Source of the DNA: Bdellovibrionales bacterium
Lineage (GTDB): Bacteria > Bdellovibrionota > Bdellovibrionia > Bdellovibrionales > JAMPXM01
Direction: 5' to 3'
DNA length: 59,615 nt
Assembly (NCBI GenBank): GCA_043739185.1
Contig: JAYUEN010000053.1
Location: forward strand, 1-59,615
In this document: positions 18,443-39,836 of the stretch, in pieces
How the letters are laid out: each line of letters begins with the position of its first letter
Position numbering within the stretch: the first letter of the stretch is position 1
The notes under the pieces: generated by a model
What the model was told of the DNA's origin: nothing
What the model saw: only the letters and a program-made list of their open reading frames with translations
Databases searched by the model: none
Position numbers and translations under genes: made by a program

Positions 18443-18443
18443 A

Positions 18444-18950
18444 TCAACCTGACATCAACTTTGTACTTTGAATATGCACATAATCCTCTGAAGAAAAGGA
18501 TTTGTTCAGATCAATAACTGTGATCATTTCATCGTTGAATTGGGCGACTCCAATCATATAGTGAGTTGGAACATCGGTTTTAATATTTGGATTTTTTTCG
18601 ATCTTATCGTCATCAAGAGAGATAACAGCCTCGACATGGTCGACCTGCGCCGCGATCGGTCCGCTGTCTGAATCAAAAATCAAAAATGTTTTTTTGGCTA
18701 CTTCGGTTTCAGGCATTTGAAAACGTTTTTTCAAATCAACTAGCCCCATAATTTGGCCGCGATAATTGATCAATCCCAAAAAATATGGAGCGGTATTTGG
18801 GATCATTTTGACTGTTTGATTTTCAACCACTTGTTTGACGGCCAAAAGTGGAGTTGCATATAGCTCTGCATTGAGCTTGAAGAGCAAGAATTTATGGCTA
18901 TCGAGCTCTTGAAATTCAATGGTATCCAAAATAGATTTTGCGGTACTCAA
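18444..18950 (-). CDS. cheW: Chemotaxis coupling protein CheW
   Basis: IPNTAPYFLGLINYRGQIMGLVDL motif. TTG start at 18950 after GGAG overlaps the cheA stop. Confidence 0.92.
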   Translation of the reverse strand: MSTAKSILDTIEFQELDSHKFLLFKLNAELYATPLLAVKQVVENQTVKMIPNTAPYFLGLINYRGQIMGLVDLKKRFQMPETEVAKKTFLIFDSDSGPIAAQVDHVEAVISLDDDKIEKNPNIKTDVPTHYMIGVAQFNDEMITVIDLNKSFSSEDYVHIQSTKLMSG

Positions 18951-20854: not shown

Positions 20855-20880
20855 TTTTTATCCTATCCATTTCACAATTC

Positions 20881-22464
20881 TTATGAAGCTTCGTCTTTTT
20901 GATGGCGTCTTTGAACTCTGCCATCATCTTTGTCTTCTTGATCCGTATGAGATTTTGCCATGCCGACAATTTTCCTGACGAGATCATCGTCACCCGCCGT
21001 ATCTAAATTGGCGCGCGGACTTTTCTTTTTATTTGGAGCGTGATTTTCCTCTTTTAGAGTATGCATATTTTGAAATTCAAAATTTTCATTGTCTGACTTT
21101 TGACCAAGAATACTTTCAGAGATCGAACGCGCGATTGCGTGCAGACTTCGGGTTTCATCCTTCAAGATATAAGCAGCACTGCTTGATTTCTGCGCCACTT
21201 GATTATTGATTTCGGTGGTTTTACTGAGCTCTCTCATGGCGTGCGTGGTTTGTGCCACACCTAATTCTTGTTCTCGAGAGGCCGTTGTAATATTGTCAAC
21301 TCTTGAAGCAATCGAATCAATTTCACGAGAAATATCTTTGAAATTTCGTAGCGCTTGCTCGGTGACTTGTCGCCCTACCTGAACACGCTCGGAAGTATTT
21401 TTGACAATTTCATTTACTTGTCTTTCGCTATCCAACAAGATGCTGCCAATTTCCTGAGAAGCTTTACCGCTCATTTTAGCTAAGTTTCCCACTTCTTCTG
21501 CAACAACCGCAAAGCCGCGACCATGTTGGCCCGCACGCGCGGCCTCAATCGACGCATTGAATGAAAGAAGCTGTGTTTTGAAAACGATGTCGTTGATGAC
21601 ATTTGTTTTTGAAGTGATTTCTTGAATCATATTGACCATGCTCTTAAGCTGTTCATTGGCGTGGTGAACACTGGTCATAGCGTCAACCATTTGATTCATG
21701 ATATTCATACCGTTGTTCGCAGTTTGAGTCATGCTCTGCATAACTTCTTGTGATTGTTTTGAATACTCTGAGGTTTGATTCAAGGTACTCGACATTTCAG
21801 CCATTGCCGAAGTGGTTTCTTGAACGACCTCTGCTTGTTGATTCACGCCGATTGAAAGCGACTCACTGAATTTAGAAATATCTTTTGAGGTATCAGATAA
21901 TACTTGGGTCGTTTTAGATAGATTAAGAAAAGATCTATTTAGAGGACCAATGACATTTCGACAAACAGATAAAATTGCTGTTGAAAGAATGAGCTGAACA
22001 AAAAATCCGTAAACGCAAGCTATGGTCAAAGCCTGCCAAAAGGCACGATTGATTGATTCCATACTATAGCTTACGGTCACATGGCCTTCATAAAGGCCGG
22101 CAGAGTCGTGAATGGCATTGTCAATTGTAATATTGTCTCGAGACTGGGCCATCATCATTCGCTCATTTAAGAGACGATTATTTTTATCATAAAATAGTGC
22201 TGTTTGAATTTCTGAATCCAAGTGCTTTGCGTAGTTAAATAAAAAGCCTTCGTCTTTGGTTCCAATAAAGTGCTCACCAATTTGTACAAGCAATTTTGAA
22301 ATCACTTCGGCCTTTGAGCGCGTGGCCGCTTCGGCCGCATTTTTATGTTGAGCCGCCATGGTCAAAGCAAATCCTAACATAAGCACGGTTGAAATGACGT
22401 TGACCGGCCAGAGCAAACGGACGATCAAAGACCGATGTTTGAGTAAAATTAAATTTTTGATCAT
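20881..22464 (-). CDS. Methyl-accepting chemotaxis protein
   Basis: Two TM helices; signalling tip [30 protein letters not shown]. Confidence 0.95.
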
Positions 22465-22505
22465 AGGTATTTAACCTCATTAGAAATGTTAAAATCTCAT
22501 TTTAG

Positions 22506-22532
22506 TATTCGGAACTCCCGCGACTAAACTCA
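22506..22532 (-). promoter_or_regulatory. FliA-type promoter for the MCP-che operon
   Basis: Minus strand TGAG-N15-TCCGAATA. Confidence 0.45.
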
Positions 22533-22673
22533 AAGTTCACATGGTCTTGAATTGAAAACTAGACCTAGTTGAGTGCCTAGACTCTGAAGACCAAAGTATA
22601 ATCTTGAAAAAGCCCTCAAGTTGAACGCCTATTATTACGAAAAAGAAAGAGTATGTCACACGGAGGACTTCAA

Positions 22674-23075
22674 ATGTCAGTTACTCGAATTCTCATAGTT
22701 GATGATTTTGTGATGATAAGAAGTTTACTAAAGACCTCTTTAGCCAATCTAGGTTTTAAAAACGTGGATGAAGCGCGCGACGGCGTTGAGGCCTACAACA
22801 AAATAGCAAATGCCTTCGTAAACCAAAACCCTTATCAGGTTGTTTTCTTAGACTGGAATATGCCAAATATGACGGGGCTTGAAGTGATTCAAAAGTGTCG
22901 GGCGCAAGCTGAACTCAATGAATTGCACTTCATCATGATTTCTGCTGAACAAGAAGAAAAGAAAATGAAACAAGCTCTCGATGCCGGCGCCAATGACTTC
23001 ATAGTGAAGCCGTTTTCGCCACAAGTATTAGTTAAAAAAATTGAGGCCATAATTCAGGCCAAAAAAACCGCTTAG
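22674..23075 (+). CDS. cheY: CheY-like response regulator
   Basis: ILIVDD, FLDWNMPNMTG, FIVKPF; ATG 22674 after GGAGG. Confidence 0.9.
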   Translation: MSVTRILIVDDFVMIRSLLKTSLANLGFKNVDEARDGVEAYNKIANAFVNQNPYQVVFLDWNMPNMTGLEVIQKCRAQAELNELHFIMISAEQEEKKMKQALDAGANDFIVKPFSPQVLVKKIEAIIQAKKTA

Positions 23076-23100
23076 TTGAAATCAATTTGGAGCCATTCAA

Positions 23101-23649
23101 ATGAGCGGTCCAGTCATAAAACTAAATGATGATACATATGCTAAGATGGAACAAGCCATACAAGAGACCTTTTCTCTTGTATTGGGACTCAACCTACAGC
23201 GCACCGATTTTTATCTTGGCTCAGTTAAGAATCCTCCGAAACATATTTCTGGCTATAGCGTATTAAAAAACCCCATGACCCGAGGTATATTTAGCATTGG
23301 TTTCCCGCCTGAAACTGCATTTCGAATTTTTTCGAGCTTTTATGGTGCGGCGATTGATCAGATCGACGATCGAGTCATAGAGGGCATTGGCGAATTAACC
23401 AATATGATTTATGGTTGTTTGAAAAAGCAATTCAATGACGAAGGCTTTGATTTAGAAATGTATGTCCCTTATGTTTTGGTGCAAGATAAATTTTGCGACT
23501 TTTCTGATTTCGGACCAGGAAAGGCAGTCACGCTCCATTTCGGTACGAGTGTCGGCGCTTTCTGGGTAGAGCTCAAGCTTAACAAAAAAATAAAGAGCAA
23601 AAAACCAAAACCAGCAAAGCTTTCTTCCCAACGAAAAAAAGCCGCCTAA
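23101..23649 (+). CDS. cheX: CheX-family phosphatase
   Basis: EGIGELTNMIYG (ExxN) motif; adjacent to cheY. Confidence 0.8.
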   Translation: MSGPVIKLNDDTYAKMEQAIQETFSLVLGLNLQRTDFYLGSVKNPPKHISGYSVLKNPMTRGIFSIGFPPETAFRIFSSFYGAAIDQIDDRVIEGIGELTNMIYGCLKKQFNDEGFDLEMYVPYVLVQDKFCDFSDFGPGKAVTLHFGTSVGAFWVELKLNKKIKSKKPKPAKLSSQRKKAA

Positions 23650-24067: not shown

Positions 24068-24083
24068 TGGCTCATTTCTTGAA
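24068..24083 (+). promoter_or_regulatory. sigma54-like promoter (GA variant) upstream of the large operon
   Basis: TGGCTCATTTCTTGAA = GG-N10-GA, about 35 nt before AGAGG-ATG 24119. Confidence 0.4.
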
Positions 24084-24118: not shown

Positions 24119-27100
24119 ATGACATCTGGCGATCTGAGGTTGAAGTTAAATCAATTATTCGAGGGCTCTCAGGCCTCAAATCATTCCTGTCGCTTATGGA
24201 AGCGGTCTAAGGTGCCTAGTTCTGTAGTCGCTTGTCAAAAATATCGACAGCAATTTCGAGCATTAAAAGGACCTAAGTTTGATCTTGGCTTTTCTAGTGA
24301 GAAAAAATCAGCGGTTTTTGTTAACACGATATTTGCCTTTGTGGTTTTGGCTCTCATCACCTCTTGTACATATAAATCACCGGCTGTCGAAACACCTGTT
24401 CCGACTGAAAGTGCTATAGCTAAATCTTTTTTTGTTAATATAAAGCGCGATGCAAACGCTCAAGCAACAAGTAAGACTACAACCAGTGCAAAGAGTTTTC
24501 TCTGTGGTTGGGCTAGCGAAGTTGAAGCCGGAGTAGCGCAGTATTATTTTGAAAATAATGTGGTCAACACCAGCCATTGCAATATCGTTTTTGAAATTAC
24601 CGAAAACCAACTGGTAGGAAAAATGATCAATCCATCTTTTCCTTCTGATCAAAGTCGTTGGGAAGTGGCGGTTACGATTCCGATTAAGTCCCACTATTAC
24701 TTAGAAAATGAAAAGGATTCAAACGGACAAGACACTAAAAAAATTATTAAGAACTCGAGTCGCAGCCATTGGTCTGCACGTCCCAATATGGATCTTGATT
24801 TGAACGGAATTAATTTGAGTCGTTATTGGTCAAGCCCGGTTAGTGACGATGGTAGTGGCGGTGGTACTTTAGGCGTCGATCAAGTAGAGTGGGATACAAA
24901 AAATAATTTTCTCGGATTCACAATTAATAAATCCGTAACCGGATCAAGTTATTCAAAAATTCGCGTGAACTTTTTGGCTTTTGATCACAATGAATCTTTT
25001 AAATCAACACCCTTTAAAGAGCAAAATTATCGCAAACTAAATGTACTTCATATAATTGGTGAGAAGGTCAATGGAGTCTACCAAATCCTTCGCGCCGCAC
25101 ATTGGGACCTTTCAAAGCAACATTTGATCAGGCTTTGGGGTTTCCCTGAAGAGTATAAGGCGATCGCGAAAGAAGTCATATCAGATTGGAATCAAAGTTT
25201 AGTTGAAATGGGAGCAACAAAAGGCAACTCCGAACCCTTTAAAATTGATGAAACCACAACTGAACATGCTTTTGATTTGCGCTATCCGACCATTGCCTGG
25301 ATCGCAGATGAAAAAATTTCTTTGGTCGCGCCACTCGGGGTTGGTGAAGCTCTTGCCGATGTCAGAAATGGTGAAATGAAGTGGGGAATGATCACCTTAT
25401 ACGGTGGCTTTATTGAGAAATATATTAAAATGTTCAGCCCAGGTTCAAATATTTCTTCATTTAAAGCAATGCTCGGACAAAATTTACTAGGAGCTGGAAG
25501 TAAGGCTCCCGCGCAATTGGGCATTCCTCAGGGCCTACAAAATATTGCTTCGCTGTCATTAATGGCAACCAATTCAGATCGCGTGAATGAGGGACTTAAT
25601 AATATGTCCCAGACTATGCTTACCGCGATAGTCAATAAATCTAAAAAAGAAGGTCGCACTTTAAATCTTGAAAATGAAAAATTATCCCTTAAAGCAGATC
25701 AATTTCAAAAATTATTTACTGAGGTTATCAAAAAAGCGCAAAGCCTTTCAAGCCAGTCTCAGCAAGAGATGGCGACCATGGGCTATTTGGAGCATTTGAG
25801 AAATTCTCTATTCATGGGTGTTGATTTTTTAAAGAAAGTGAATTCAAAAGACGCCAAGGTCAATGCCAAAGAAGACAAGGTGAGTTTAATTGAACAAATG
25901 AGCGCCAAATATTCGGGATCACGCTTTTGTGCAGACCGCACATTCGCAGATGTCGCCGCCGGATGGGCACAGGCAGCCAGTGAGGCTTCGAAAAAAGGAA
26001 TTGCTGAAGATCAACGAGTTCTTCACCATGTTATTAAAGAATTGATCACTCATGAGTACGGGCACTTCTTAGGCCTTGGTCATCAATTCAAATCAAATAT
26101 TTTACCAAATCCAGATGAAGTTCCACCCTCCGTTTACAAAGCTCTGAAAGAACGGGCCACTGAAGAAAATAGTTATACCAATTATACTTCAGTTATGGGT
26201 TATCGTGCTCCTGAAACAGAGGTTGCCGATACCGTCGATGTGAAGCCTGGTCCGCATGACAAATTGGCCTTGGCTTATCTTTATAATCAACAATATCCTA
26301 TTTACAAAAAGGGAGACGATAAATTCTCTTTTAATTCCTTGCCTGCAAACGGCATCATCCCAGATTTTGCGCCCGATAAGCCGGGTTATAAGACCGCATA
26401 TTTTCCACAGTGTAATGATCTAGACGCCAGCTTATCAATGGACCCCTATTGCAATCGCTTCGCGCGCGGAGTAGAGGCGACCAGCATTGTTAAAAATTAT
26501 TTTAAGGATTTGAAAGCCAATCTTGTTCAAAATTTAATTGCATTTACCGATGCTCATGGTGGCTGCGCTGAATGTGTCGAAAGTCATCTGTGGTACAAAT
26601 CATTTAAAACTCTTGGTCGGACCAGATTGTTTTATGATTATATGAGACTCACTTATAAAGCGGACTTTGAAGAGCTCGCTGGTGACGAAGATGCCTTAAT
26701 GAATTTTTCAAAAGTTTGCAACGCAGGAACACCCGAGGGTGTGAGTCTGGTCTCACTTGATCTTACCGATAAATCGGTTATTCGATTACAAGAACTCTTT
26801 GCCAATAAGCCAGAGCTTAAAGAACTTTGTCGAGCCAATGCCATGGTGTTAGCTGAAATCAAGGATCTGGTATCTTTGAATGCCGTCGATTATACAAAGA
26901 AGGATGTTTCAGGTCGCTTCTCACCGGGCGGGATGAGCGGTGGAGACACCGATCGTGACTACAGTCGAATTTTTGGCTCTTGGACTGAAATGTCAGCCTT
27001 ACCTCTTAAGACAGCAAGTCTATATGCACTAGTCACTGGATATCCTTGGATGACTGAATATGGAATGGCAGGGGTCCCGATTTTTGATGATCCAAATTTG

Positions 27101-27946
27101 AAATTTTCATATAGCTCAGTTTATCCAAGTGAATATATTGAAATACTAGCCGCCAATACCACTAGTAATTTAAAGTTTGCTAACTTTGGACAGAACGAAC
27201 GCACCAATATGGGCGCCTCGGTTTTGGCAATGAGCTGGCTGAACAATTTGTCGGTCGTGGGAAATAACGATGCCAATATTTTTTCTCAAAGATATGTCAA
27301 TCGCATCCGTGCTCAACAAAAGTTTGACTTTGGAATTGTTGCCGTTATTTTGAAGGGGCATAAGTCAGATACGAATATTGGTTTTGTTGATACCTTTCAG
27401 GGTTCGGTTTTTGATTTTTCGACCAATAAGAGTTTGCCGACAACCGATTCCTATCTCTTGCCAGGCGGACAGATTTTTGTAGATGCTCCTGAAATGTTTT
27501 TATACCCAGTGACTCCCTTCGTGCCGATTTCAGATACCGAAGGCTATGTTATTGCCTATAAGCTTACCAATTCGCCAGACCCCACTGATCCTTTCTCAAG
27601 TATGGGAGTGAAATCGCGACTCAGTGGCCTCAATGATCGTCTGATCAATGCTTGCCTTAACGGAACATCTAAGAATGGCTTGGGCCAAATTTTTGATGCC
27701 AGCAATCCTGGCTTCAAGGGTTTTAAGATGGGATTACGGGTTGCGGTAGATCAAACTGATCGCAAAGAATTTTTCGATTCAGTAGATCAGGCCTTTCATG
27801 CCACTTATAAAATCGGCGATCGAGAAATCAAACCAAATGAAAATATTTGTTATGAATCGATCAAAGGCATGGGACTGATCATGTCTTCGGCTGCGATCAT
27901 GAGTGGGTTTTGGTTGCCTGAAACTATGGATTATATACAGAAATGA
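24119..27946 (+). CDS. Giant zinc-dependent metalloprotease lipoprotein (metzincin, EcxA/DUF4953-like)
   Basis: HEYGHFLGLGH, YTSVMGY Met-turn, PGPHDKLALAYLY, CND...DPYCNRF; ITSC lipobox. Start position uncertain. Confidence 0.85.
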   Translation: MTSGDLRLKLNQLFEGSQASNHSCRLWKRSKVPSSVVACQKYRQQFRALKGPKFDLGFSSEKKSAVFVNTIFAFVVLALITSCTYKSPAVETPVPTESAIAKSFFVNIKRDANAQATSKTTTSAKSFLCGWASEVEAGVAQYYFENNVVNTSHCNIVFEITENQLVGKMINPSFPSDQSRWEVAVTIPIKSHYYLENEKDSNGQDTKKIIKNSSRSHWSARPNMDLDLNGINLSRYWSSPVSDDGSGGGTLGVDQVEWDTKNNFLGFTINKSVTGSSYSKIRVNFLAFDHNESFKSTPFKEQNYRKLNVLHIIGEKVNGVYQILRAAHWDLSKQHLIRLWGFPEEYKAIAKEVISDWNQSLVEMGATKGNSEPFKIDETTTEHAFDLRYPTIAWIADEKISLVAPLGVGEALADVRNGEMKWGMITLYGGFIEKYIKMFSPGSNISSFKAMLGQNLLGAGSKAPAQLGIPQGLQNIASLSLMATNSDRVNEGLNNMSQTMLTAIVNKSKKEGRTLNLENEKLSLKADQFQKLFTEVIKKAQSLSSQSQQEMATMGYLEHLRNSLFMGVDFLKKVNSKDAKVNAKEDKVSLIEQMSAKYSGSRFCADRTFADVAAGWAQAASEASKKGIAEDQRVLHHVIKELITHEYGHFLGLGHQFKSNILPNPDEVPPSVYKALKERATEENSYTNYTSVMGYRAPETEVADTVDVKPGPHDKLALAYLYNQQYPIYKKGDDKFSFNSLPANGIIPDFAPDKPGYKTAYFPQCNDLDASLSMDPYCNRFARGVEATSIVKNYFKDLKANLVQNLIAFTDAHGGCAECVESHLWYKSFKTLGRTRLFYDYMRLTYKADFEELAGDEDALMNFSKVCNAGTPEGVSLVSLDLTDKSVIRLQELFANKPELKELCRANAMVLAEIKDLVSLNAVDYTKKDVSGRFSPGGMSGGDTDRDYSRIFGSWTEMSALPLKTASLYALVTGYPWMTEYGMAGVPIFDDPNLKFSYSSVYPSEYIEILAANTTSNLKFANFGQNERTNMGASVLAMSWLNNLSVVGNNDANIFSQRYVNRIRAQQKFDFGIVAVILKGHKSDTNIGFVDTFQGSVFDFSTNKSLPTTDSYLLPGGQIFVDAPEMFLYPVTPFVPISDTEGYVIAYKLTNSPDPTDPFSSMGVKSRLSGLNDRLINACLNGTSKNGLGQIFDASNPGFKGFKMGLRVAVDQTDRKEFFDSVDQAFHATYKIGDREIKPNENICYESIKGMGLIMSSAAIMSGFWLPETMDYIQK

Positions 27947-30900
27947 GTATGAAGATGAAAACACCAATTCGTTGCATTTTCACATTTTTTCTGACGATCG
28001 CAGCATCTGCTTGTCAATACAAACAAGAAGCGAGACTCCCAAATGAGCCGGCGGTTTCGAACTCGAAAACTGGCGCTGAGTTGGTGTCGCAAAAACTGGC
28101 GGGAGATGCTTCAGCTTTACAAAGTTTAAATTTGAAAGAAATTTACACGGCACTTTCAGCAGCAAAAAATCCTGCAGAGATGAACCAACAGCTAGATAAA
28201 CTTGAAGTCTATGCATTGGGCAAGGACTATGTCGAAAATTCAAGTGTCAATCGCTTAGAACCTATGCGCTTGATTTTGCAATACTATAATTTTGGACTCA
28301 TTCGCCTTCAGGAATTGAAGGCCGATGCCGGCCAAATTTCAATTCGATTGAAAAAATATACTGAAATTTTGAAATCTGGTTGCGATGAAAACTTAAAGAA
28401 ATGTCAGAACATTGAATATTTTAGAATGGATCATCGTTCAAGAAGAGTGATTTTGATGATGGTCGAAGAGTTAGATCAAAAGATTGGTGCTTGCACGGAT
28501 AGTACTTGTGGTCAAAAAATAAAAGAGTATTACGATAATTTGGCATTGGCTTTTGATGTGAATAACCTCACTCGTGATGCCGAAATGGAGTTTTTGTATA
28601 TCAAGCGGGCTCGCGAATACGGACTGCTCTTTAAAAGCGGTAAGGACTTTGCGCAAAACGCTGATTTCTTTCATCGTCATGGATTGGTATTTGAAAATAT
28701 TATATCTCATTATCCTGCCGATCAAAAGAGTACTCGCTTTTCAGATTTCGTAAAGGCATTTAAGCCCTGGAATTATTCGCGCTTAGACGCAGATCCATTT
28801 CCTTTTGGAATCCAAAAAATGTTCTCATTTGCTGCCTCTGAGTTTCTTTATTCCTCTGCTGACAATTCTCTAAACCCAGATTTCAAGGCCGCAATTGTTT
28901 CTTCACAAGACCAAGATGATAAAGCGGGGAGAAGTTTTTTGCACTCTTTGCAGGATTTGCAGGCCGATCAAAGCTCCAAAGCCATTTTCAAAAATCTAAA
29001 TTTCAACGTCGATGCCTACCAAGACGCCAGTGGCATGAGCGAATATTTTTTCATGATTGATCGTCTTTATCGCGGACATCTAGGCCGGGAAGAAGTGAGC
29101 AGCATCTGGCAGGGATCTAAAAAGGATCAAAAGGCCCTTTCAGATACTCTGAATTTTTATATACGGGTCGAATTTATAAAAATGATTGTGCTCACCAATA
29201 AATATATGTTGGGATATTTGAGCCAAACAGATATTCCGAACGATATTTTATTTGAACAAGTGATTCAAAAAAGTGAATCCCTAACAAAACAATGGGGACT
29301 CATGATCTCCCAAATGGACTCAGTCGCGTCCTTTGTTTCAGAACAGTTGAAAATCAATGGCGGAAAAGCCACAAAAGATTCGCTAAATGAATCTTTATTA
29401 CTTATTGCCAATGTGAAGAGAAATGCAAAATTTCTCTCGGTATATCCTAATATGTTACTCCTTGGTTATTTTATGATTGATCTAAAGGCTGATCTCAAAT
29501 TTAGCACTTGGTGGGGCGGCGAGATATCAATCAATCCTAAAGAGGTGATGAATGCGCTTTTAGATGGCGCCATCGGCTCACCTTGGTTTGTATATAGTGT
29601 CGACTCAAGTGCCCTGAGTAAGACTGAAATCATTTATGCATACTATTATGCGCTCAATACCGGGGCCTTTGAAACATTCTCAGTCAAGAAAGATGCAAAG
29701 AATAAGAATTCGCTCGATCGCATTTCATTCTTCAAGACCGCTTTAGAAAAAACTATGACCGAAGATGTCGACGTATTTACAAAAACACTCGAAGGCCTCG
29801 CTGACAAAGTTTCAAGTAACTCTAATTTTGCTTCTTTTATGGAGGCTTGCCAAAACGAGTCTGAGAATAAACAAGAATACAAGGTCAATATGCCTTTGAC
29901 CTCGCTTGAGAAATTTGCACTCTTCGGATCACGATCAACAGGATATTTGCAGTCCTCGGGTGACTTTTATATGTCAGGACCAATGAGTAGCATTTCAGAA
30001 AAAGATATCAGTCTTGAAAAACGCTTGGTTCAAGTGAAGTCCATGATGAAGATACTAAAATTAAATCTCAAGCAAAATCGCGACGGCGGAACCCTTGTAG
30101 ACGAACAACTTAAGGCAGTTCAGGCCACTATTGATGACATTGAAAATTTGAAAAAAGCGTTCCTCAAAGAAGTCGTCATTCAACATAAGAAGCTCTCTCA
30201 ATGTACCAATCGACTCAATTGGCTCGAACGCAAACGCGAATCTGCGTTGATGACACTTGAAATGCAGCATCTCGGAGGTATTTGGGATCAGTACGATACT
30301 AAGAAATTAACTGGAAGTGAATATGTCTATAGCAAATTCGATTTCTTAAAAAGATTTCAAGGATTTTCAGATACTTTGAAGCCAAAAGTTATATTTGAGG
30401 AGCCAGAAGTAGATGCGGCAAATAATTTGAAATTGAAACTCATACATATTCCGTTGGTCAATTCTGTTACCGGAAAACCAGCTTCGAGAGAAGAGTTCAT
30501 TGCTGATGGGATGAAGAAGTTGAGTTCGAAGTCCGCGCCAATGATTACCTGGTTTGACGAAACCGCTAGTATCACTCCTTGGCAAGAGAAAATTAATACC
30601 ATGGCGGCCATATATCGTATGCAGTTTGAATCCGGGATACAGGCGGATGTTGAAAATACCATTTCAGCAAAAGAGATTATTGCCGATACCTTTGAGCTGG
30701 CAAAATTTATTCAAATTCAAGACGACGAGATTCCTTGGCTAAAGGCAATGGGACTCAAGGATCGAATTCCCCGTGCGAATCTACAGGGATTCTTTTCGAC
30801 TGGATTGAAAAGCGACTACAAAGGCATTTTAGACAATGTTTACTCTAAGATGTTCGAATTGACTGCCGATCTTCCTCAAGATCTAGATGAGGCTAAGAAA

Positions 30901-31248
30901 TTTTATGAAGCAACCGTTAGCTTGGGGAACTTTTTGTTTCCGCCTTCTGTGAAGGTAACGAATAGCATTGATAATAACTATTTGTTTTTAGTGCGTAGAA
31001 CTGAAAACATGATTAATGATTTCAATCAGGCAATTGCAGATTTTCAAACCGGAATTAAGGCCAGCGATCTAAACATCACATTTCGCTTGGATGAAGCACC
31101 ATATTCTCCGAATTTAATTGATGGTGGGACCTCTTTACTTTTGGATTTAAAAATTCAAAACAATTTGAAAAATAAAGTTCTTCGCTTTCACAACGTCAAT
31201 ACCAATCATCACTTTAAATCGGATTCGACACCAAAGGATGAGGACTAG
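27943..31248 (+). CDS. Giant alpha-helical lipoprotein of unknown function (paralogue 1)
   Basis: ASAC lipobox, ATGA overlap with the upstream gene, colinear similarity to 32182-35448. Confidence 0.85.
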   Translation: MSMKMKTPIRCIFTFFLTIAASACQYKQEARLPNEPAVSNSKTGAELVSQKLAGDASALQSLNLKEIYTALSAAKNPAEMNQQLDKLEVYALGKDYVENSSVNRLEPMRLILQYYNFGLIRLQELKADAGQISIRLKKYTEILKSGCDENLKKCQNIEYFRMDHRSRRVILMMVEELDQKIGACTDSTCGQKIKEYYDNLALAFDVNNLTRDAEMEFLYIKRAREYGLLFKSGKDFAQNADFFHRHGLVFENIISHYPADQKSTRFSDFVKAFKPWNYSRLDADPFPFGIQKMFSFAASEFLYSSADNSLNPDFKAAIVSSQDQDDKAGRSFLHSLQDLQADQSSKAIFKNLNFNVDAYQDASGMSEYFFMIDRLYRGHLGREEVSSIWQGSKKDQKALSDTLNFYIRVEFIKMIVLTNKYMLGYLSQTDIPNDILFEQVIQKSESLTKQWGLMISQMDSVASFVSEQLKINGGKATKDSLNESLLLIANVKRNAKFLSVYPNMLLLGYFMIDLKADLKFSTWWGGEISINPKEVMNALLDGAIGSPWFVYSVDSSALSKTEIIYAYYYALNTGAFETFSVKKDAKNKNSLDRISFFKTALEKTMTEDVDVFTKTLEGLADKVSSNSNFASFMEACQNESENKQEYKVNMPLTSLEKFALFGSRSTGYLQSSGDFYMSGPMSSISEKDISLEKRLVQVKSMMKILKLNLKQNRDGGTLVDEQLKAVQATIDDIENLKKAFLKEVVIQHKKLSQCTNRLNWLERKRESALMTLEMQHLGGIWDQYDTKKLTGSEYVYSKFDFLKRFQGFSDTLKPKVIFEEPEVDAANNLKLKLIHIPLVNSVTGKPASREEFIADGMKKLSSKSAPMITWFDETASITPWQEKINTMAAIYRMQFESGIQADVENTISAKEIIADTFELAKFIQIQDDEIPWLKAMGLKDRIPRANLQGFFSTGLKSDYKGILDNVYSKMFELTADLPQDLDEAKKFYEATVSLGNFLFPPSVKVTNSIDNNYLFLVRRTENMINDFNQAIADFQTGIKASDLNITFRLDEAPYSPNLIDGGTSLLLDLKIQNNLKNKVLRFHNVNTNHHFKSDSTPKDED

Positions 31249-32192
31249 TGATAAAGCTTCAGCGAATCGTTTTTCATTCGATGTTCGTCTTCGTATTGAG
31301 CTTGTCGTTTAGACAGGCACAGGCGGAGAGCTTCGATTCAACGTCGGTTTCGGGTGATTCGGTGAACGCCAAGACATCGGACAATTCTCCAGCGACAGCT
31401 GAAAAGAAAAAGTCAGGTGGGCAAAGCATTGCGAACGCAAAATTAATTGGCGCTTCAACAGATAAGTCCTATTTTGAAATTGCAGATTCAATCAAAACCG
31501 ACCTGACAAATGAATCGAGCAATCGCACCACCAAAAATACTCTTGCTTTTAGTTATAACAAGGCACTGGGTTCGAGGCTGAATGGCGATTTGAGTTTTAA
31601 TGTTGAGACTGGCCTGTCGTCAATTGCTCAAGGTATGAATATCGAAAGGACAAAAGCGAATCCGATGTGGGAGGACCTTAGTTTAAATCTTTCGTACGAC
31701 CGAAAATTATTTAAGAGATCACATTTAAGTATTTCTGTAGGTGAAGCACTGCCGACAGGTTACGTCAGTCAAATGGAAGCCTATAAATCAATCTTAGATT
31801 TAAACTTAAGTTTCGCAACTCCAATTTTTATCAATTCGTTAGTTTTGAAGAATCACATTGGCGGGGCATGGATCGTCAATACTTACGAGAGTTCGCCCAA
31901 TAGCTTACAGTCAAATCCTCTGTTAACTGGCGATTATTCGATTGCTTTGCGATATATTTTCAATCGCAATTGGTCGTTTGGCGTTTCTGAAAATTTTAAG
32001 ACTGTTCGATTCATCAATGGTGCTGACGAAATGGTCAGTGCAAGCTCAGAGTCGATCAATTATAATTTCAAATCTTTTTCGATGGCTTTGATATCTTGGA
32101 ATGGTAGTTACGATTACAATGATTCACCGGCAACTCTTTATTTTGATGCTTACCGCGAAATAGTATCGCTTATGGTTTCATATGATTTTTGA
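31248..32192 (+). CDS. Putative outer-membrane beta-barrel protein
   Basis: AQA signal cleavage site, alternating amphipathic strands, C-terminal VSYDF. Confidence 0.7.
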   Translation: MIKLQRIVFHSMFVFVLSLSFRQAQAESFDSTSVSGDSVNAKTSDNSPATAEKKKSGGQSIANAKLIGASTDKSYFEIADSIKTDLTNESSNRTTKNTLAFSYNKALGSRLNGDLSFNVETGLSSIAQGMNIERTKANPMWEDLSLNLSYDRKLFKRSHLSISVGEALPTGYVSQMEAYKSILDLNLSFATPIFINSLVLKNHIGGAWIVNTYESSPNSLQSNPLLTGDYSIALRYIFNRNWSFGVSENFKTVRFINGADEMVSASSESINYNFKSFSMALISWNGSYDYNDSPATLYFDAYREIVSLMVSYDF

Positions 32193-35100
32193 GAAAACTA
32201 AGCTACTTTTAGTTTTGATGTCTTTGCTTTCGGTCGCATGTACGGGCGGAGAGAAAGCCGCTATTCAAAAACAAGAGGCGGCGATTTCTTCGGCACAAAA
32301 AACTCAAGGTATTGCCGCTTCGAATTTTTCTGCAGAAGAACAAAAGCAATTTGATCAGATTCAGTCCTTACTGAAAGTGTCCGACGATGCTCAACTTTTA
32401 AGGGCTGCGAGTTCCTTGTTTTTTGATTTTTCAAGCACTGGTGTTTGGCAAAATACAAAGCTCAATAGTCAAACCGATTATGTGCGACTTGTTGATCGTT
32501 TCAATTTAGCAATCGTGAACCTCTATGCGAGCAAATCACCATTGCTACAAGAGCTTCAAATTTGGTCGAAATACCAAGCTATGCTTGATGTTTCTTGTCG
32601 CGACTCGAAGAATGCTTGTTTGGTATTCGACGTCTTAAAGCTTTCCCCTCGCAGTTCTGAGGTTTTCAACCAGATGGCAATGCAAAAATCTCAAGTTGAA
32701 GAGTACTACCGAATTTTGGGCTATTCGCTTGATATACAGAATCGCACTTATTCGAATGCAAGTGCGGAGCTTTATGTTAAGCGCTTTGATGAGTATCGCC
32801 GATATTTGAATGACGGCAAAAGGTCTCTAGAGCTTGAGAAAGCAACAAAAGTTTTTCAAATGTTCTTGGCGGCGCCAGAGTTTTCTAAAAAGGCTGAGTT
32901 ATTCAAGAATCTTGGTTTGCTCAATTCGTATCGTGATGAGGAATTGGCCTTGGCAGCTGAATTTCTCTTCCGAACCGATGAAATGACCCAGGCGATTAAG
33001 ACTTCTCAAGCGGATCCCAATAGTTTCGTAGGCCGCAGAGATTGGGTACTAAAGCTTAATCCGAAAATTCTTGAAAAATTGAAAGTTTCAAACCTCCCTC
33101 TTGATGAATCCTTTTTTCTGGTTGATCAAATATTGAACGGAAGGCTTTCGCCGAATCAGGGCGTGATGATGGCGACAAAAGGAAAAATTGAAGCACATAC
33201 TTTAATAGATTCAATTTCAAATCGACTGCGTTTTGAAGTGGTCTATTTAATGGTGCTGAATCAAAAGTCCATTCAAGACTTCGCCTTAAGATCAAAGGGT
33301 CTGCAGATCAGTTCGTTCAAAAGTGAGATGCAGCGTGATCTTTCGAGACCCATGACCGAGGCGCGCGCACTTCGAGGTAGAGTTTCAGTTTTATCGCAGC
33401 TCACAGATCTGATAAGCACAGCAAATCATATCGAGACCAAAGATTTGACAATGCAAATTCTGAATTTAGATCGAAGCCTGAAGTCTGCTTTGAGTTATCC
33501 TGCTCTGCTGAGTCTTTACTATCTGAGTTTTAAGGCCGGTTTAACTGCAGAAACGATAGTTGCGCCAGCAATTGATCGGTATCATCCGCCGCAAACCTTT
33601 CGAGGGGTGATTAAAAAACTCTTTCAGGGGCAAAATATTTCGCCGTTTGAATATTCTCTCAATAATGATGCGCTCAATAGTTTTGAGACCCTTGAAGCCA
33701 TGCAACTCGCTTTTCAGACGGATTTGTTTCAGAGCATGGGATTTTCGGTTGATGAATTGCTTGCCAATTTATTTGAAATGGCAACGGCTGAGGAGATGAC
33801 CTCTGGTCAGGGGTCGATCATGGGAGAGCTTGGACCAAAGGCTGATTTAGAAAGTAAATTTGAAAATCTAAAGGACAAATATTCCTCTCCTGATTGGAAC
33901 GAGCTTTTAAGTACCTGCTCTGATTTCGAGAAAGGGCAGCCGCATGCGCGCGAGCTTGCGATTCGGCATCTCATTATATCACCGACACTTGGCTACAATA
34001 TTCAATTTTTAAACGATGAATACACCGGAAATGAAATAGTCAATATTGACAATCAATCTATGCAAAAGCCAGGCTATTTCTCAATGAGCCGAGCACATGT
34101 GACTGAGCTCGAGATCATTCGTTCGGATTTACTCCTCACCATTCGGTTTTTTCAAAATCTAAAATCGGGATTTGAGAAGGGTGATTCGACTAAGCTGGTT
34201 AAGCTTGAGGAGAAGCTCGAATACGTAAAAGAAAAGACGCGCAGCTTTTTAAGGCTAATTTTGCAGAGGCAAAAAGAGTTCGACTCATGTTATTTTCAAT
34301 TGATCAAGCGAGATCGCGTGATCATGGCGCAGCTCCTTAAGACCGAGGCTGTATATTGGCGAGCCGCTCACCAAGAAATGAAGAAGATGAGGGCCGATCA
34401 GAACTATCAAAGCCCCATGAATCAAAAGCCAATTAGCTATGAATTGCCTCAAGGGGTGGTTTATAGATCAAGAATATCAGGCCAATCCGTAGTGAATTAT
34501 GATTTTGATGTTTTGTTGAGAATGAAAGAATATCTTGAAAGTGGAGCAAAGTGGCCGGGTAGCCAAAGAGAAGCCATTGATCCGAGCCTTAAAATTGTTT
34601 TGACCGAAGAAATCGCAAAGACTCCTGAGTATAAAAATGCGCTCACTCAAGCTATTCCGTTTATTGAAGACGAAGATAAATTTGTAATGTCGGCAATGAG
34701 AAGTGGGCTCTATTCAGGAAAAAATGCCGTCTTGCCTTGGTATTTGGGAACTGTCTTTCCGATAGTTGCTTTTCAAAATTATTATGATGGTCATGCGCTT
34801 TTGTACCGAATGAGTCCGGTCGTAACTGAAATTTTAGGAATGCCAGAGCTTGAAAGCTCCGCCGAACTCTTTGAAATTCCTCAGCGCGTTTTGCAATTTT
34901 TCAATCTTGAAAAGGCTGAGCTAGAAGCTTTGAATCTGACGGGCGCCACCCATCTTTATGATTTTAAGCTGACATATAAGGCGGGACTTTATCTCAACTC
35001 GAAGTCTTCGCCTTCCGCAAGTGAAGATTATATGCTGCAAGTCCTGTCGCAGAAATGGATGGGTACTTACGGCGACAAAGATATGATGGAGAATCCCGAG

Positions 35101-35448
35101 GTACTCAAATATGGTGGGCGACCACCGGCGGTTGTACCAGTTGAAACAATAGCCCAAAATTATTTTAATTATCGCTCCGATACGCATCGAACTATATTTG
35201 CGCAAGATCTCAATGATATTTCACAGTTTGATACCCAATATAGAGATTATATAAATGCCGATTTTGTGAGGACCGCACAATTTAAAAATTTTGTTTTACA
35301 AAATGCACAATCGAGGGCCCCGCTAATGATTCATTTTGATTTGAGTGGCCCGCAGAAAATGAAACTATTTACCGATGGCGCAATCGACAATGTCGACTCA
35401 GTTTATATACAATTTAAAAAACGTACCGGAAACTTTTTTGATAGGTAA
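32182..35448 (+). CDS. Giant alpha-helical lipoprotein of unknown function (paralogue 2)
   Basis: SVAC lipobox, overlaps the upstream gene, shares motifs with 27943-31248. Confidence 0.85.
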   Translation: MIFEKTKLLLVLMSLLSVACTGGEKAAIQKQEAAISSAQKTQGIAASNFSAEEQKQFDQIQSLLKVSDDAQLLRAASSLFFDFSSTGVWQNTKLNSQTDYVRLVDRFNLAIVNLYASKSPLLQELQIWSKYQAMLDVSCRDSKNACLVFDVLKLSPRSSEVFNQMAMQKSQVEEYYRILGYSLDIQNRTYSNASAELYVKRFDEYRRYLNDGKRSLELEKATKVFQMFLAAPEFSKKAELFKNLGLLNSYRDEELALAAEFLFRTDEMTQAIKTSQADPNSFVGRRDWVLKLNPKILEKLKVSNLPLDESFFLVDQILNGRLSPNQGVMMATKGKIEAHTLIDSISNRLRFEVVYLMVLNQKSIQDFALRSKGLQISSFKSEMQRDLSRPMTEARALRGRVSVLSQLTDLISTANHIETKDLTMQILNLDRSLKSALSYPALLSLYYLSFKAGLTAETIVAPAIDRYHPPQTFRGVIKKLFQGQNISPFEYSLNNDALNSFETLEAMQLAFQTDLFQSMGFSVDELLANLFEMATAEEMTSGQGSIMGELGPKADLESKFENLKDKYSSPDWNELLSTCSDFEKGQPHARELAIRHLIISPTLGYNIQFLNDEYTGNEIVNIDNQSMQKPGYFSMSRAHVTELEIIRSDLLLTIRFFQNLKSGFEKGDSTKLVKLEEKLEYVKEKTRSFLRLILQRQKEFDSCYFQLIKRDRVIMAQLLKTEAVYWRAAHQEMKKMRADQNYQSPMNQKPISYELPQGVVYRSRISGQSVVNYDFDVLLRMKEYLESGAKWPGSQREAIDPSLKIVLTEEIAKTPEYKNALTQAIPFIEDEDKFVMSAMRSGLYSGKNAVLPWYLGTVFPIVAFQNYYDGHALLYRMSPVVTEILGMPELESSAELFEIPQRVLQFFNLEKAELEALNLTGATHLYDFKLTYKAGLYLNSKSSPSASEDYMLQVLSQKWMGTYGDKDMMENPEVLKYGGRPPAVVPVETIAQNYFNYRSDTHRTIFAQDLNDISQFDTQYRDYINADFVRTAQFKNFVLQNAQSRAPLMIHFDLSGPQKMKLFTDGAIDNVDSVYIQFKKRTGNFFDR

Positions 35449-35451
35449 GGG

Positions 35452-36180
35452 ATGCTTTTTCTTGAGAGCTTTGATCAGGTAAAAATTGCTTTGCGAGAGT
35501 TTTCGCCGCGAGCACAATTCGGAGAGTCTTGCTATTTGGTCGTGCCTGGGTTTCTTGAGCATTCCGGTTCGAAAATATTTGAAGAATTGTGTAAGGAGCT
35601 AGCCGTAAAGGGCGAAACTGTGTTTTGCCTAGATTTGAGAGGAACTGGTAAGAGTGAAGGGCGATATAGCTTTGGCAAATTTGAATATTATGATGTTTTG
35701 GCCGCCATTCAATATTTAAAAAAGACTTTCTCAGAAATCATATTGATAGGCTTCTCTTTAGGTGCCTACAGCAGTCTGCGGGCTCATTGTGAATCTCCTG
35801 AAGCGATAAAAGCTCTTTTTCTGGTTTCGCTGCCCACGTCAATTCATGAAATTATTTTTGGCGGCCATGCTGCTCGGCATGCTCTAGGACTTCTCATGAA
35901 TAAATTTGCGCAAAGAAAGTCGCGAAGTTTCAAAATTCGTTTGACCCATCCTTTTGCAAAAATTCCGAGTGCATTTCAATTTGCACAAAATGCCAATGCG
36001 CCAATTCATCTCTTGGTTGGCTCGCAAGATTTGTTAGTTCCGGCCTCAATGAGTCAAAAAGTTTTTGATCAAATTAATTCGCCCACAAAGACTTGGCGAG
36101 TATTTACTGGCGGAGTTCATGCTGAATTGCTTTATTATCATAATCCCACTTCCTTTATGGAGTGGCTGGCAAATCCTTAA
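35452..36180 (+). CDS. Alpha/beta hydrolase
   Basis: DLRGTGKSEG, GFSLG nucleophile elbow, GSQDLLVP, GGVH. Confidence 0.9.
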   Translation: MLFLESFDQVKIALREFSPRAQFGESCYLVVPGFLEHSGSKIFEELCKELAVKGETVFCLDLRGTGKSEGRYSFGKFEYYDVLAAIQYLKKTFSEIILIGFSLGAYSSLRAHCESPEAIKALFLVSLPTSIHEIIFGGHAARHALGLLMNKFAQRKSRSFKIRLTHPFAKIPSAFQFAQNANAPIHLLVGSQDLLVPASMSQKVFDQINSPTKTWRVFTGGVHAELLYYHNPTSFMEWLANP

Positions 36181-37636
36181 GCTCAATCATATCTTCAACA
36201 ACCCAATCTAAATTTGGGTCATTGAGTGGAGCCTGACAATAGGAGCAAACAGAAGATAGGCTATCCTTTTGAGCCGCGCCACACTTCGGACAGGAGTTGG
36301 CATAAACAGATCCTTTGGATACCTCGTCTGAATAAGTTCGCATCAGTACTAATACCCTGGTATCCGAATTCAAATCTTCCTCGCCTTGGGCACCCGAATG
36401 TCCAGAATCCAATTGCACTAAGCTAAAGGCATATTTGATCGCAACATAAGCGCGAATTTGATTTTCTTTAATATTGGTTTTAATGAGCTCGACAGCCTGA
36501 GTATAAAGCCGGTTATAGGCGACATTCACATGGGGAGTGGTTTTTTGAAAAAACTCGTACGCAGCAGGCAAACAAAAACGTTTGAGGACATTTGTATTGT
36601 GCGTGAGTTGGGCAATCAAAATTTGCATAAAGGCATTGCTGGCGCGATCTTCAATCGAATGACGAGAAAACTCAGAATCTTTTTTGAGCTCTGGATCTTG
36701 AAAATTCGGGCTTCCAGATACTTGCTCAAATGCAAAACCAAAGTCAGCGGCCTGGGTAATTTCGCACAATACCCAATCGTATTCGCCATTATTTAAATAG
36801 GTGCCGCAATAAGGACAACGTGCGCTCTCAATTAATTTTGAAGTAAGAGGAGCCGAACATTTAGGGCACAAGTCAGAGTGAAAAATATCATGACCTTTTT
36901 TAAAATCATGGCGTCTTATAAAGGACCAATATTCGATAAAACTCTCTTCGCCGCCCGGAGAATTGAGCTGCGGAAAGCGTTCACTAATGAATTGATCAAA
37001 AGCCGAGGCTGTGATTTCGACATCCAAACAATCATAACTTGATTCTCTCGATGCCCGAACAATTTTAATTTGATGAATGAGCACATTGCTCATTGGGTTG
37101 CTCTCTTGCAAGAGATTCATCATCGCAAATTGAGCATTGAATCTTTGGTAAACTCCATCGCTAATAAATCGGCGCATCAGATCGAGTCGCTTTTCTGACC
37201 ATGACTGCTGGATCGTCAAAAACGCAATGCTCACTTTCTTTTTAAAGTCGTCAATCTGATCGCCTTGTAAAAATTCAGTCGAAACTGATACTTCAGGTAA
37301 CGAAGAAGTTTCGGGAGCATAGGTCTCAGGCTCGCCATTTCCCCGCATTCGTTTGAATAAAAAGGGTACGACAATGACAATGATTACTATGAGCAATATG
37401 AAAAAAAAGGAACCCGAGCCATCATCGTAGCCGCCGCCGCCGACATATCCACCGCCACCTGAGTAGGTACTTCCACCACTTGAGTGATAGCCGCCACCAC
37501 CGCCACTGCTATGGCCACCACCGCTGCTATGTCCGCCGCCGCCACCACCACCTCTCGCCCAAAGGTCAATGCAAAAAAATAGCACCGGAAAAAATGGCAA
37601 GAGGCTAAGCGAAAGAAGCCAAAAATTTCTTTTCAT
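36155..37636 (-). CDS. Membrane protein with Gly-rich N-terminus and duplicated Tim44-like + zinc-ribbon modules
   Basis: ARGGGGGG low-complexity stretch and TM helix; AFLTIQQSW..RRFISD..EYWSFIR followed by CPKC..CPYC; second module ends in CPKC..CSYC..DWVV. Confidence 0.8.
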   Translation of the reverse strand: MKRNFWLLSLSLLPFFPVLFFCIDLWARGGGGGGGHSSGGGHSSGGGGGYHSSGGSTYSGGGGYVGGGGYDDGSGSFFFILLIVIIVIVVPFLFKRMRGNGEPETYAPETSSLPEVSVSTEFLQGDQIDDFKKKVSIAFLTIQQSWSEKRLDLMRRFISDGVYQRFNAQFAMMNLLQESNPMSNVLIHQIKIVRASRESSYDCLDVEITASAFDQFISERFPQLNSPGGEESFIEYWSFIRRHDFKKGHDIFHSDLCPKCSAPLTSKLIESARCPYCGTYLNNGEYDWVLCEITQAADFGFAFEQVSGSPNFQDPELKKDSEFSRHSIEDRASNAFMQILIAQLTHNTNVLKRFCLPAAYEFFQKTTPHVNVAYNRLYTQAVELIKTNIKENQIRAYVAIKYAFSLVQLDSGHSGAQGEEDLNSDTRVLVLMRTYSDEVSKGSVYANSCPKCGAAQKDSLSSVCSYCQAPLNDPNLDWVVEDMIELKDLPATP

Positions 37637-37689
37637 TTAAATGAAGTTCCTTTTTGAATATCTAGCGATGAATATCTAAAGAAAATCAT

Positions 37690-38688
37690 TTAGAGTTTTT
37701 CGAGAATTTGTTTTTTCTTGGCTTCAAATTCGTCTTTTGAAATGAGCCCTTGGGTCAGAAGCTCACCAAGTTTTTTCAAACGAGTCGCCGGATCCTCTGG
37801 CGTAGAAAGGCCGCCAAAAGCGCCAGCCATACCCGCACCAAGTTGTTGACCCATTCCGACGCCAACTCCAACTCCCATAACCATGCCAGCACCTCCGGGA
37901 TTTTTGGCGGCATCTCTTAGGGCCTGCAGCTGTTGTAACTGTGCATAGCTAACGCCGGCAACGCCAGCAGCTTGAGATTCTGCACTCATATCTGCGATGC
38001 GATTGATTCGTTTCATGGTATCGTCGTCAAATGAAGTACCCTCAATTCTAAAATCAACTAAAGTAAATCCCAATTTTTCGAAATCTTGATTGAGGGATTT
38101 GGTGAGGCCTAAAGCGAGCTCATTGCGATGGGTATCAATTTCAGTATAAGTAAAGGCCGAACTCGCGAAAGTATTTGTCATGGGTTGGATTATTCGCGAA
38201 CTCATCAACTCCCTTAATTCGCTGCCAGTAAAGAGTTCGTGGGCGCCAATAACTCCGGTAAAAAACCACTCAGGCTTTTGTATTTGCAAAGAGAAGTTTC
38301 CGAAAGCTCTTAGACCTACCGGGAAGTGATACTTCGGATCTTCATATTTAATAACAGATGGTGTTCCCCACTTTAAATCTACGAGTTGGGTGGTTTTAAA
38401 AAAGTAAAATCCCACTTTGTGTTCACTGACAAAGCCTTGCATAAATTTGGTAATGGTGGTGATGAAGGGGATATTCGAGGTCGCAATTTCTACAATACCA
38501 GGTTGAGTATAAACGCCTTGAACTTTTCCCTCGTAGACAAAGAGACAGCCTTGCCCTGGGCCCACAATTAATTTCGAAGCATTTTTGATTTCATCTCCAC
38601 TGCCTGTCCACATTTCGAAAATCGCGTCTGAAGACGGATTTTTCCATTCGATAACCGAGCGTAATTGGTTTTTAATCATTCCCCACAT
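37690..38688 (-). CDS. SPFH-like (YdjI / virion-core-like) protein with C-terminal SHOCT domain
   Basis: SVIEW, SKLIVGPGQ, KWGTP, LRAFGNF; SHOCT-type RLKKLGELLTQGLISKDEFEAKKKQIL. Confidence 0.88.
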   Translation of the reverse strand: MWGMIKNQLRSVIEWKNPSSDAIFEMWTGSGDEIKNASKLIVGPGQGCLFVYEGKVQGVYTQPGIVEIATSNIPFITTITKFMQGFVSEHKVGFYFFKTTQLVDLKWGTPSVIKYEDPKYHFPVGLRAFGNFSLQIQKPEWFFTGVIGAHELFTGSELRELMSSRIIQPMTNTFASSAFTYTEIDTHRNELALGLTKSLNQDFEKLGFTLVDFRIEGTSFDDDTMKRINRIADMSAESQAAGVAGVSYAQLQQLQALRDAAKNPGGAGMVMGVGVGVGMGQQLGAGMAGAFGGLSTPEDPATRLKKLGELLTQGLISKDEFEAKKKQILEKL

Positions 38689-39805: not shown

Positions 39806-39836
39806 GAGGCCCCCCTCTGAGATCAAGTATTAAAGC

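Follow-up and report, generated by a model that had tools for sequence, protein, structure and literature searches.

A conserved four-gene envelope unit combining a giant metzincin lipoprotein, two helical lipoproteins and a predicted outer-membrane barrel in the Bdellovibrionales

We analysed a 59,615-nucleotide (nt) contig of a Bdellovibrionales bacterium (JAYUEN010000053.1, assembly GCA_043739185.1; hereafter the window), in which positions 24119..36180 of the + strand hold genes for a giant lipoprotein with a Met-zincin protease domain, a giant helical lipoprotein (A), a predicted outer-membrane beta-barrel, a second giant helical lipoprotein (B) and an alpha/beta hydrolase. The first four of these genes form an envelope unit that is conserved and undescribed; in the open-access literature we found no description of the operon, of the helical family or of the barrel-protease pair. 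A preliminary description of the window had proposed that all five genes encode one envelope complex. A conserved envelope unit does exist, but it consists of four genes and not five, as the hydrolase is not a member.

Conservation of the four-gene unit

Gene-neighbourhood conservation had been suggested as a check on the unit, and the comparison shows linkage of the four genes across the Bdellovibrionales. Among 41 close genomes, the same 13 have a strong match to the protease and to lipoprotein A. Order-wide, 62 of 251 genomes matched the helical-family profile and 56 were kept, six being dropped because their matches lay at the signal-peptide end only, with E 1e-4 or worse. All 56 encode an operon-type protease and, in reverse, 56 of the 57 genomes with such a protease encode the helical family; the protease of the 57th is a fragment at a contig start. 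Within a phylum-level set of 301 genomes the helical family is present in 19, two of which lie outside the order and keep the same gene order.

In all 43 distinct loci, which were hand-chosen from the match lists and include related genomes that are not independent, the protease gene is followed directly by a helical lipoprotein gene. Five of these loci are cut by contig ends. The order protease, A, barrel, B is found in 31 of the 38 untruncated loci (27 intact, 3 split or edge-cut and 1 with a diverged B), while the other seven comprise two with the order barrel, protease, A, B, four without an adjacent barrel and one that is decayed. Overlap-coupled junctions persist at 20-40% sequence identity. 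Homologous loci are present in Bdellovibrionota-type metagenome assemblies (15/15 loci), and the four-gene form was found in metagenome-type records alone.

Both genomes that hold the four barrel-less loci, together with two congeners, each carry a barrel at another site that matches strongly (E 1e-44 to 1e-82). One of them (G093, loci L048-L050) has three divergent units, none of them next to a barrel gene, and just one strong barrel match elsewhere, so one-to-one coupling at the level of the gene is not required. Another genome (G025; L021, L022 and L023) has three divergent copies of the unit, two of them barrel-first and arranged back to back. In a genome of the same genus as the window (L019:13068-16567), the same flanking genes enclose no more than pieces of the unit: a protease shortened to 830 amino acids (aa), 92 aa of the barrel and 236 aa of a lipoprotein. 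In one genus (L045, L046, L057 and L058) the unit sits as an insertion between genes for cell division and the cell wall, which were judged by eye to be ftsW-, murG- and murC-like. Two candidate variants were rejected: an apparent protease-lipoprotein fusion, a 2462-aa open frame in G063, has a TAG stop between the genes, and a 286-aa gene upstream of the unit in L061, considered as a barrel, aligned as a different protein.

Layout of the operon

All five co-directional genes of the preliminary description were located (Table 1), and the tight junctions it reported are real. Protease and lipoprotein A share a 4-nt ATGA overlap, lipoprotein A and the barrel a 1-nt TAG/GTG overlap, and the barrel and lipoprotein B an overlap of 11 nt; a gap of 3 nt separates lipoprotein B from the hydrolase. 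The GC content of the operon region (39.5-42%) is like that of the remainder of the window.

Table 1 Features of the operon and of the region just upstream, in window coordinates
Feature	Position	Strand	Details
Imperfect sigma54-type -24/-12 motif	24068..24083	+	TGGCTCATTTCTTGAA; weak candidate promoter
Giant Met-zincin lipoprotein	24119-27946	+	1275 aa from ATG
Zinc-binding motif HEYGHFLGLGH	26051..26083	+	protease residues 645-655
Met-turn SVMGY	26189-26203	+	protease residues 691-695
Giant helical lipoprotein A	27943-31248	+	1101 aa
Predicted outer-membrane beta-barrel	31248-32192	+	314 aa, about 12 strands, C-terminal Phe
Giant helical lipoprotein B	32182-35448	+	1088 aa; paralogue of lipoprotein A
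Alpha/beta hydrolase	35452-36180	+	242 aa; Hydrolase_4, GFSLG nucleophile motif

The giant Met-zincin protease

By sequence, the protease is a member of PF16313 (DUF4953, Met-zincin) in the metzincin clan, scoring 27.8 bits against a cut-off of 24.2, and its proteolytic activity is predicted. The zinc-binding motif and the Met-turn that had been read from the sequence are both present. The H, E, H, G and H columns of the zinc motif are invariant in the protease alignment. Each of the 38 full-length operon-type homologues retains this motif, including the catalytic Glu, as well as the Met-turn and the lipobox (the last a heuristic call). In the predicted structure (34-sequence alignment, pLDDT 78, pTM 0.77) a beta-rich N-terminal domain is followed by the metzincin domain and by a helical and beta C-terminal region; the metzincin domain is split by a helical insert that is poorly conserved and of low confidence in the model. 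The best fold match is EcxA (4l6t_A; Z 11.2, root-mean-square deviation 3.5, 188 aligned residues), followed by matrix metalloproteinases and serralysin (Z 8-9). A PDB sequence search with the protease gave nothing significant, and Foldseek, which had been suggested as a check on predicted models, gave generic matches only.

The lipobox Cys82 of the window protease (24362) lies 81 codons past the ATG, itself preceded by AGAGG at a distance of 5 nt, and 50 codons past the nearest GTG, compared with 15-33 codons from start to lipobox in 37 of 38 homologues; the start or the signal peptide is thus unusual. Within 24119-24361 there is no standard start codon 15-49 codons before the lipobox Cys, and the protease would have either a signal peptide of 50-81 residues or a non-standard start. 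The L011 protease is alike, with its lipobox Cys 96 codons from the start.

A family of giant helical lipoproteins

Lipoproteins A and B are paralogous (22% identity over 493 aa, E 1e-9), and B matches the helical family profile at E 5e-192 and diverges faster than A. As judged from their sequences, they belong to an undescribed family of ~125-kDa proteins without a matching solved fold: searches of Pfam, NCBIfam and PDB sequences returned no match to the family, which makes up 420 clusters in a 50%-identity library. An Atlas search with lipoprotein A yielded no usable match. A heuristic lipobox is found in 129 of 141 full-length members and in 30 of 32 B-type proteins. Position +2 is usually occupied by Thr or Ser; only 4 of 67 proteins have Asp there. 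Under the standard Lol rule a +2 residue other than Asp directs a lipoprotein to the outer membrane, which would therefore be the destination of the helical lipoproteins. Besides the lipid Cys, four Cys are invariant in the 49-row family alignment. An R-x-x-H-E-like motif soon after the lipid Cys (window 27943-28100) is part of the family consensus, with a loose pattern found in 33 of 67 proteins; a sorting or docking signal is possible.

The helical nature that had been claimed for lipoprotein A is supported by its predicted structure (16-sequence alignment, pLDDT 81, pTM 0.68), which is nearly all helical, with a TPR-like solenoid (about 57-300) followed by long helical bundles whose helices reach 69 residues. 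Foldseek and fold searches with this model recovered generic solenoids for residues 55-310, the best at Z 8.9, which is within the tool's background for helical proteins; the whole-chain searches were filled by the N-terminal solenoid, and the rest of the chain was barely probed. ClyA, Hbl and XaxAB chains are not among the fold rows listed for the whole chain of lipoprotein A, and family hidden Markov models of ClyA/XaxAB-type pore formers in Pfam and NCBIfam gave no match at E 0.1. A beta-hairpin at residues 518-530, next to the best-conserved helix, has the aromatic tip TWWGG (29506-29520). Two adjacent aromatic residues occupy this tip in most A-type proteins (30/37) and in fewer of the B-type (10/32), and a second loop is about equally aromatic (29/37). 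None of 69 mature helical lipoproteins has a transmembrane-grade segment (maximum 19-residue hydropathy 1.63).

The barrel and an older barrel-protease core

The 314-aa protein is predicted to be an outer-membrane beta-barrel on the basis of about 12 amphipathic strands counted by eye and its terminal Phe; ahead of the strands there is only a short disordered N-terminus. Its Atlas neighbours are OMP/OmpG-like at 0.96-0.98, with recognition slightly below the tool's threshold. The barrel has no Pfam match, and the sole PDB sequence match of the barrel profile is the porin KdgM, at a non-significant E of 0.053. Two weaker homologues of the barrel in the window's genome (G000:C405:6396-7376 and G000:C387:2703-3662; E 2e-9 and 2e-7) lie in duplicated loci beside apparent phosphotransferase-system (PTS) sugar-uptake genes, without a protease.

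More distant giant Met-zincins are present in 157 of the 301 phylum genomes, including 19 of 19 from genus g44, in which the helical family was not found (0/19 genomes). These proteins share the N-terminal and catalytic domains of the window protease (profile probability 99.96; approximately mature residues 73-783). Using a profile built from 8 other barrels, we found a barrel in 16 of 17 newly fetched, hand-picked stand-alone loci, adjacent to the protease gene in 13 and with one or two genes between in 3; a barrel also lies beside the Met-zincin in 4 of 6 earlier stand-alone loci. The barrels of the operons and of the stand-alone Met-zincins are homologous (HHalign probability 98.8, E 1e-16, 230 columns). 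No barrel-protease pair was found near the other weak metzincin match in the window's genome. Barrel and protease form an older core, which about one in five genomes of the order supplement with the helical pair. Stand-alone pairs lie directly beside the four-gene unit in L030, L051, L059 and L063, which suggests that the unit arose by local duplication. In L069-L071 a conserved lipoprotein of 436-461 aa, possibly a different accessory subunit, is encoded after barrel and Met-zincin; the one that was scanned has no Pfam match.

The core extends to Bdellovibrio bacteriovorus HD100, where the barrel of one stand-alone locus has a 283-aa homologue, CAE80892.1. In L073-L075 the barrel and a Met-zincin of 1623-1653 aa precede helicase and nuclease genes; on their opposite flank, L073 and L075 have a dehydrogenase. 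According to PMC12546842 (supplement file 3), HD100 has the same arrangement, with Bd3130 (dehydrogenase), Bd3137 (DUF4953, 1636 aa), Bd3139 and Bd3140. In L073 and L074 the barrel lies three genes upstream of the protease, and Bd3132 is named as a MIDAS protein in PMC11003981; this barrel position, together with the accession order, indicates that CAE80892.1 is likely Bd3133. In the predation time course (PMC12546842, supplement files 3 and 5), the level of Bd3137 starts at 7.9 and reaches 9.4 by 1 h, a gain of about 1.5 log2 units; it remains high during entry into the growth phase and has dropped to 5.8 by 7 h, at exit. It belongs to the entry cluster, and the Discussion of that paper names it among uncharacterised entry candidates. 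In the same data, the profile of Bd3133 tracks that of Bd3137 (r 0.92, top among its listed neighbours). In PMC11003981, Bd3137 is 3.2-fold up on entry.

A possible outer-membrane protease platform

We tentatively propose, giving it a little less than an even chance, that the four genes encode an outer-membrane protease platform acting on prey, made of a surface-held or released protease, its barrel and two accessory subunits. In this scheme the small barrel would tether the lipid-anchored protease, a zinc enzyme, to the predator surface, where it would be exposed or from which it would be released, and lipoproteins A and B would serve as its scaffold or as substrate-gripping subunits during prey attack. 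The lipoproteins would reach the outer membrane by Lol routing, the proteins would be in physical contact, and prey proteins would be the substrate. This proposal is based on the barrel going with the protease and on the helical pair never being found without it. We favour anchoring over export since proteins of this size (~130 kDa), rich in invariant Cys, would probably fold while in the periplasm and then not fit a ~12-strand pore; export through the barrel is the less likely arrangement. A precedent comes from Myxococcus, in which outer-membrane barrels retain, and do not export, the surface lipoprotein CglB (PMC9946355).

A role in prey invasion, also suggested in the preliminary description, is consistent with the rise of Bd3137 at prey entry and with its detection in uninvaded 'empty' bdelloplasts, but this support is indirect, coming by way of a distant homologue in HD100. 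Several observations weigh against the platform. About 78% of the sampled genomes do not have the four-gene unit and L019 shows its decay; the unit is therefore dispensable. Syntenic homologues of Bd3137 match the operon-type profile at E 1e-12 to 1e-19 only and thus represent a distant class, and genus g44 is without the helical lipoproteins, so that function is transferred indirectly; the identity of Bd3133 itself derives from synteny. Time-course correlations come easily, and in the PMC12546842 data Bd3137 also correlates with the unlinked Bd1841 (0.93) and with Bd3140 (0.80). In PMC11003981 the detection in empty bdelloplasts amounts to a weak signal of 2 peptides and 1.5% coverage in one sample, and Bd3137 is also 2.4-fold up in prey-free growth. 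Finally, barrel homologues beside apparent sugar-PTS genes without a protease fit a porin.

This last point leads to an alternative that we regard as unlikely, though deserving of attention, in which the locus serves peptide foraging, much as a Bacteroidota utilisation locus without a TonB-dependent transporter: the protease would digest prey or environmental protein, the helical lipoproteins would bind substrate and the barrel would be a substrate-specific porin admitting the peptides. The non-significant KdgM match, the OmpG-like Atlas neighbours, the PTS-linked homologues and the level of Bd3137 into the growth phase all agree with foraging. A general peptide porin, however, need not stay beside one protease class across a phylum, and no conserved peptide transporter gene was found among the neighbours of the unit. 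Lipoproteins face the periplasm by default, and a surface-export signal for these lipoproteins is hypothetical; with the TPR-like N-terminal solenoid, this would allow a maintenance complex on the inner leaflet of the cell's own outer membrane, in which the helical pair cages or regulates the protease during envelope remodelling. We think this rather unlikely, as the patchy distribution, the up to three copies per genome and the decayed copy fit an accessory, ecology-driven function better than housekeeping, and Bd3137 was found in prey remains.

Tandem helical paralogues with very long helices and an aromatic hairpin tip beside the best-conserved helix also recall bi-component alpha-helical pore formers. 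The metzincin could cut A and B from their anchors or prodomains, after which they would assemble on prey membranes via the hairpin. That the mature proteins contain no transmembrane-grade segment, that the second loop is about as aromatic and that Pfam and NCBIfam hold no pore-former family match for them make such a two-component attack improbable. We are similarly doubtful that the genes encode physically independent envelope proteins that are co-regulated and linked for joint expression or transfer. The barrel gene is sometimes remote from the other three genes, gene order varies (as in L021 and L022) and barrel divergence tracks that of the protease weakly (rho 0.30); yet co-occurrence is near-perfect, junctions remain overlap-coupled despite low identity, and divergence of the protease and of lipoprotein A is correlated (rho 0.82, inflated by shared ancestry). 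Lastly, we attach little probability to the barrel being a dedicated lipoprotein export channel, a new secretion type in predators whose four-gene form delivers the protease and a protease-activated helical pair that breaches prey envelopes. If true, this would be a new bacteria-killing weapon, with a two-gene core (Bd3133/Bd3137) that can be tested in B. bacteriovorus.

Little is understood of how bacterial predators present or deliver large enzymes when they contact prey. What the unit adds to this question is a new helical lipoprotein family (~125 kDa) and a pairing of barrel and protease that extends across the phylum. The two-gene core is present in B. bacteriovorus, which is amenable to genetics and in which two proteomic studies already mark the protease as a prey-entry candidate, so the role of the barrel as anchor, exporter or porin is directly testable.

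Comparison with known systems

The statement that the operon matches no recognised secretion or transport system holds for the systems compared, as the unit lacks defining features of AB5 toxins, Fap, Slam-type export, SusC/SusD loci and the Glt platform, although it may work like the last. The nearest relatives are other PF16313 proteins, including Bd3137 and Bd1841, which are likewise giant lipoproteins with an HExxHxxGxxH metzincin domain and a homologous small barrel gene nearby; the window subclass differs from PF16313 at large in always being followed by giant helical lipoproteins, and Bd3137 is known by proteomics alone. AB5 toxins have a gene for a small pentamer-forming B subunit beside that of a small soluble A subunit. 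EcxA of the EcxAB toxin (PDB 4l6t) has the closest fold to the window catalytic domain, but it is a 249-residue chain with a B-pentamer whereas the window protease is a lipid-anchored, multi-domain protein, and no conserved small partner open reading frame of at least 100 aa was found among the neighbours of L011-L064. In type XI secretion (Slam), the barrel gene lies beside its lipoprotein cargo, and the protein has an N-terminal TPR domain and a 14-strand barrel. The window unit is similar in encoding a barrel beside a lipoprotein, but its mature barrel has fewer than 300 aa and, by eye, about 12 strands, and none of 16 operon barrels has a TPR or DUF560 Pfam match. SusC/SusD loci encode a TonB-dependent transporter and a SusD-family lipoprotein; the window genes have no Pfam match to either family, and the barrel has 314 aa.

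The Glt platform of a predatory bacterium, in which the GltA/B/H barrels retain CglB, works as we propose for the barrel-held protease, but its cargo is an adhesin with a VWA domain that is coupled to a gliding motor (PMC9946355). Motor genes are not present in the window unit, and no VWA Pfam match was found in the five window proteins or in 16 A-type homologues. Fap/COG4313 channels (FapF, Pput2725) resemble the unit in that a 12-strand barrel is encoded with a peptidase; a PTG motif is their proposed lateral gate (PMC6173800). The Pro-Thr consensus LPT[S/G] of the operon barrels aligns locally with the LPTG motif of PF13557 members, over 33 columns only and at probability 20, and none of the 16 operon barrels matches PF13557 at E 0.1. 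Fap combines a C39 peptidase with amyloid-repeat subunits; the window unit has a metzincin, and a Pfam scan of the five genes with clustering of neighbours found neither Fap part.

Hydrolase, promoter and genomic context

The hydrolase (PF12146, E 1e-20) has no visible signal peptide. Its candidacy as a fifth member was rejected because it is linked downstream in only 1 of 35 loci scanned with its profile, in a same-genus genome and with one gene between; it is not evident by eye in 3 further loci. In the window it is probably co-transcribed with the unit. An unrelated weak match lies 3.5 kb upstream in L031, and a second copy of the hydrolase occurs elsewhere in the window's genome.

The sigma54-like motif that had been placed ahead of the operon is present, but it is imperfect, with GA replacing GC at -12 in TGGCTCATTTCTTGAA. 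A GGC-N7-TTG[CA] pattern, selected only after the data had been inspected, occurs upstream of 11 of 36 proteases versus 2.7 +/- 1.6 in shuffles and 7 of 36 in an inside-gene control, and neighbouring spacings give 2-4 upstream occurrences. A sigma54 promoter ahead of the protease is thus plausible but weak. A scan for sigma70 promoters and terminators gave hits at chance level only.

A Pfam scan placed a chemotaxis cluster and a divergent PilZ-like gene upstream of the operon, and Tim44-like and SPFH genes convergent on the hydrolase downstream. The chemotaxis cluster (16556-23649) encodes a 628-aa CheR-receiver-CheB fusion, a CheA-CheW hybrid, a methyl-accepting chemotaxis protein, CheY and CheX. 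The downstream genes (36155-38688) encode a Tim44-like zinc-ribbon protein and an SPFH-SHOCT protein and are kept beside the unit in same-genus genomes. Two further window genes have no Pfam match, a 767-aa open reading frame at 28-2331 and a 326-aa Pro/Thr-rich probable lipoprotein at 38846-39826. A small matrixin (M10) gene lies at 6116-6769, and several genomes of the same family have similar genes, for small lipoproteins with HExxH, within a few kb ahead of the unit (L016-L018 and L020).

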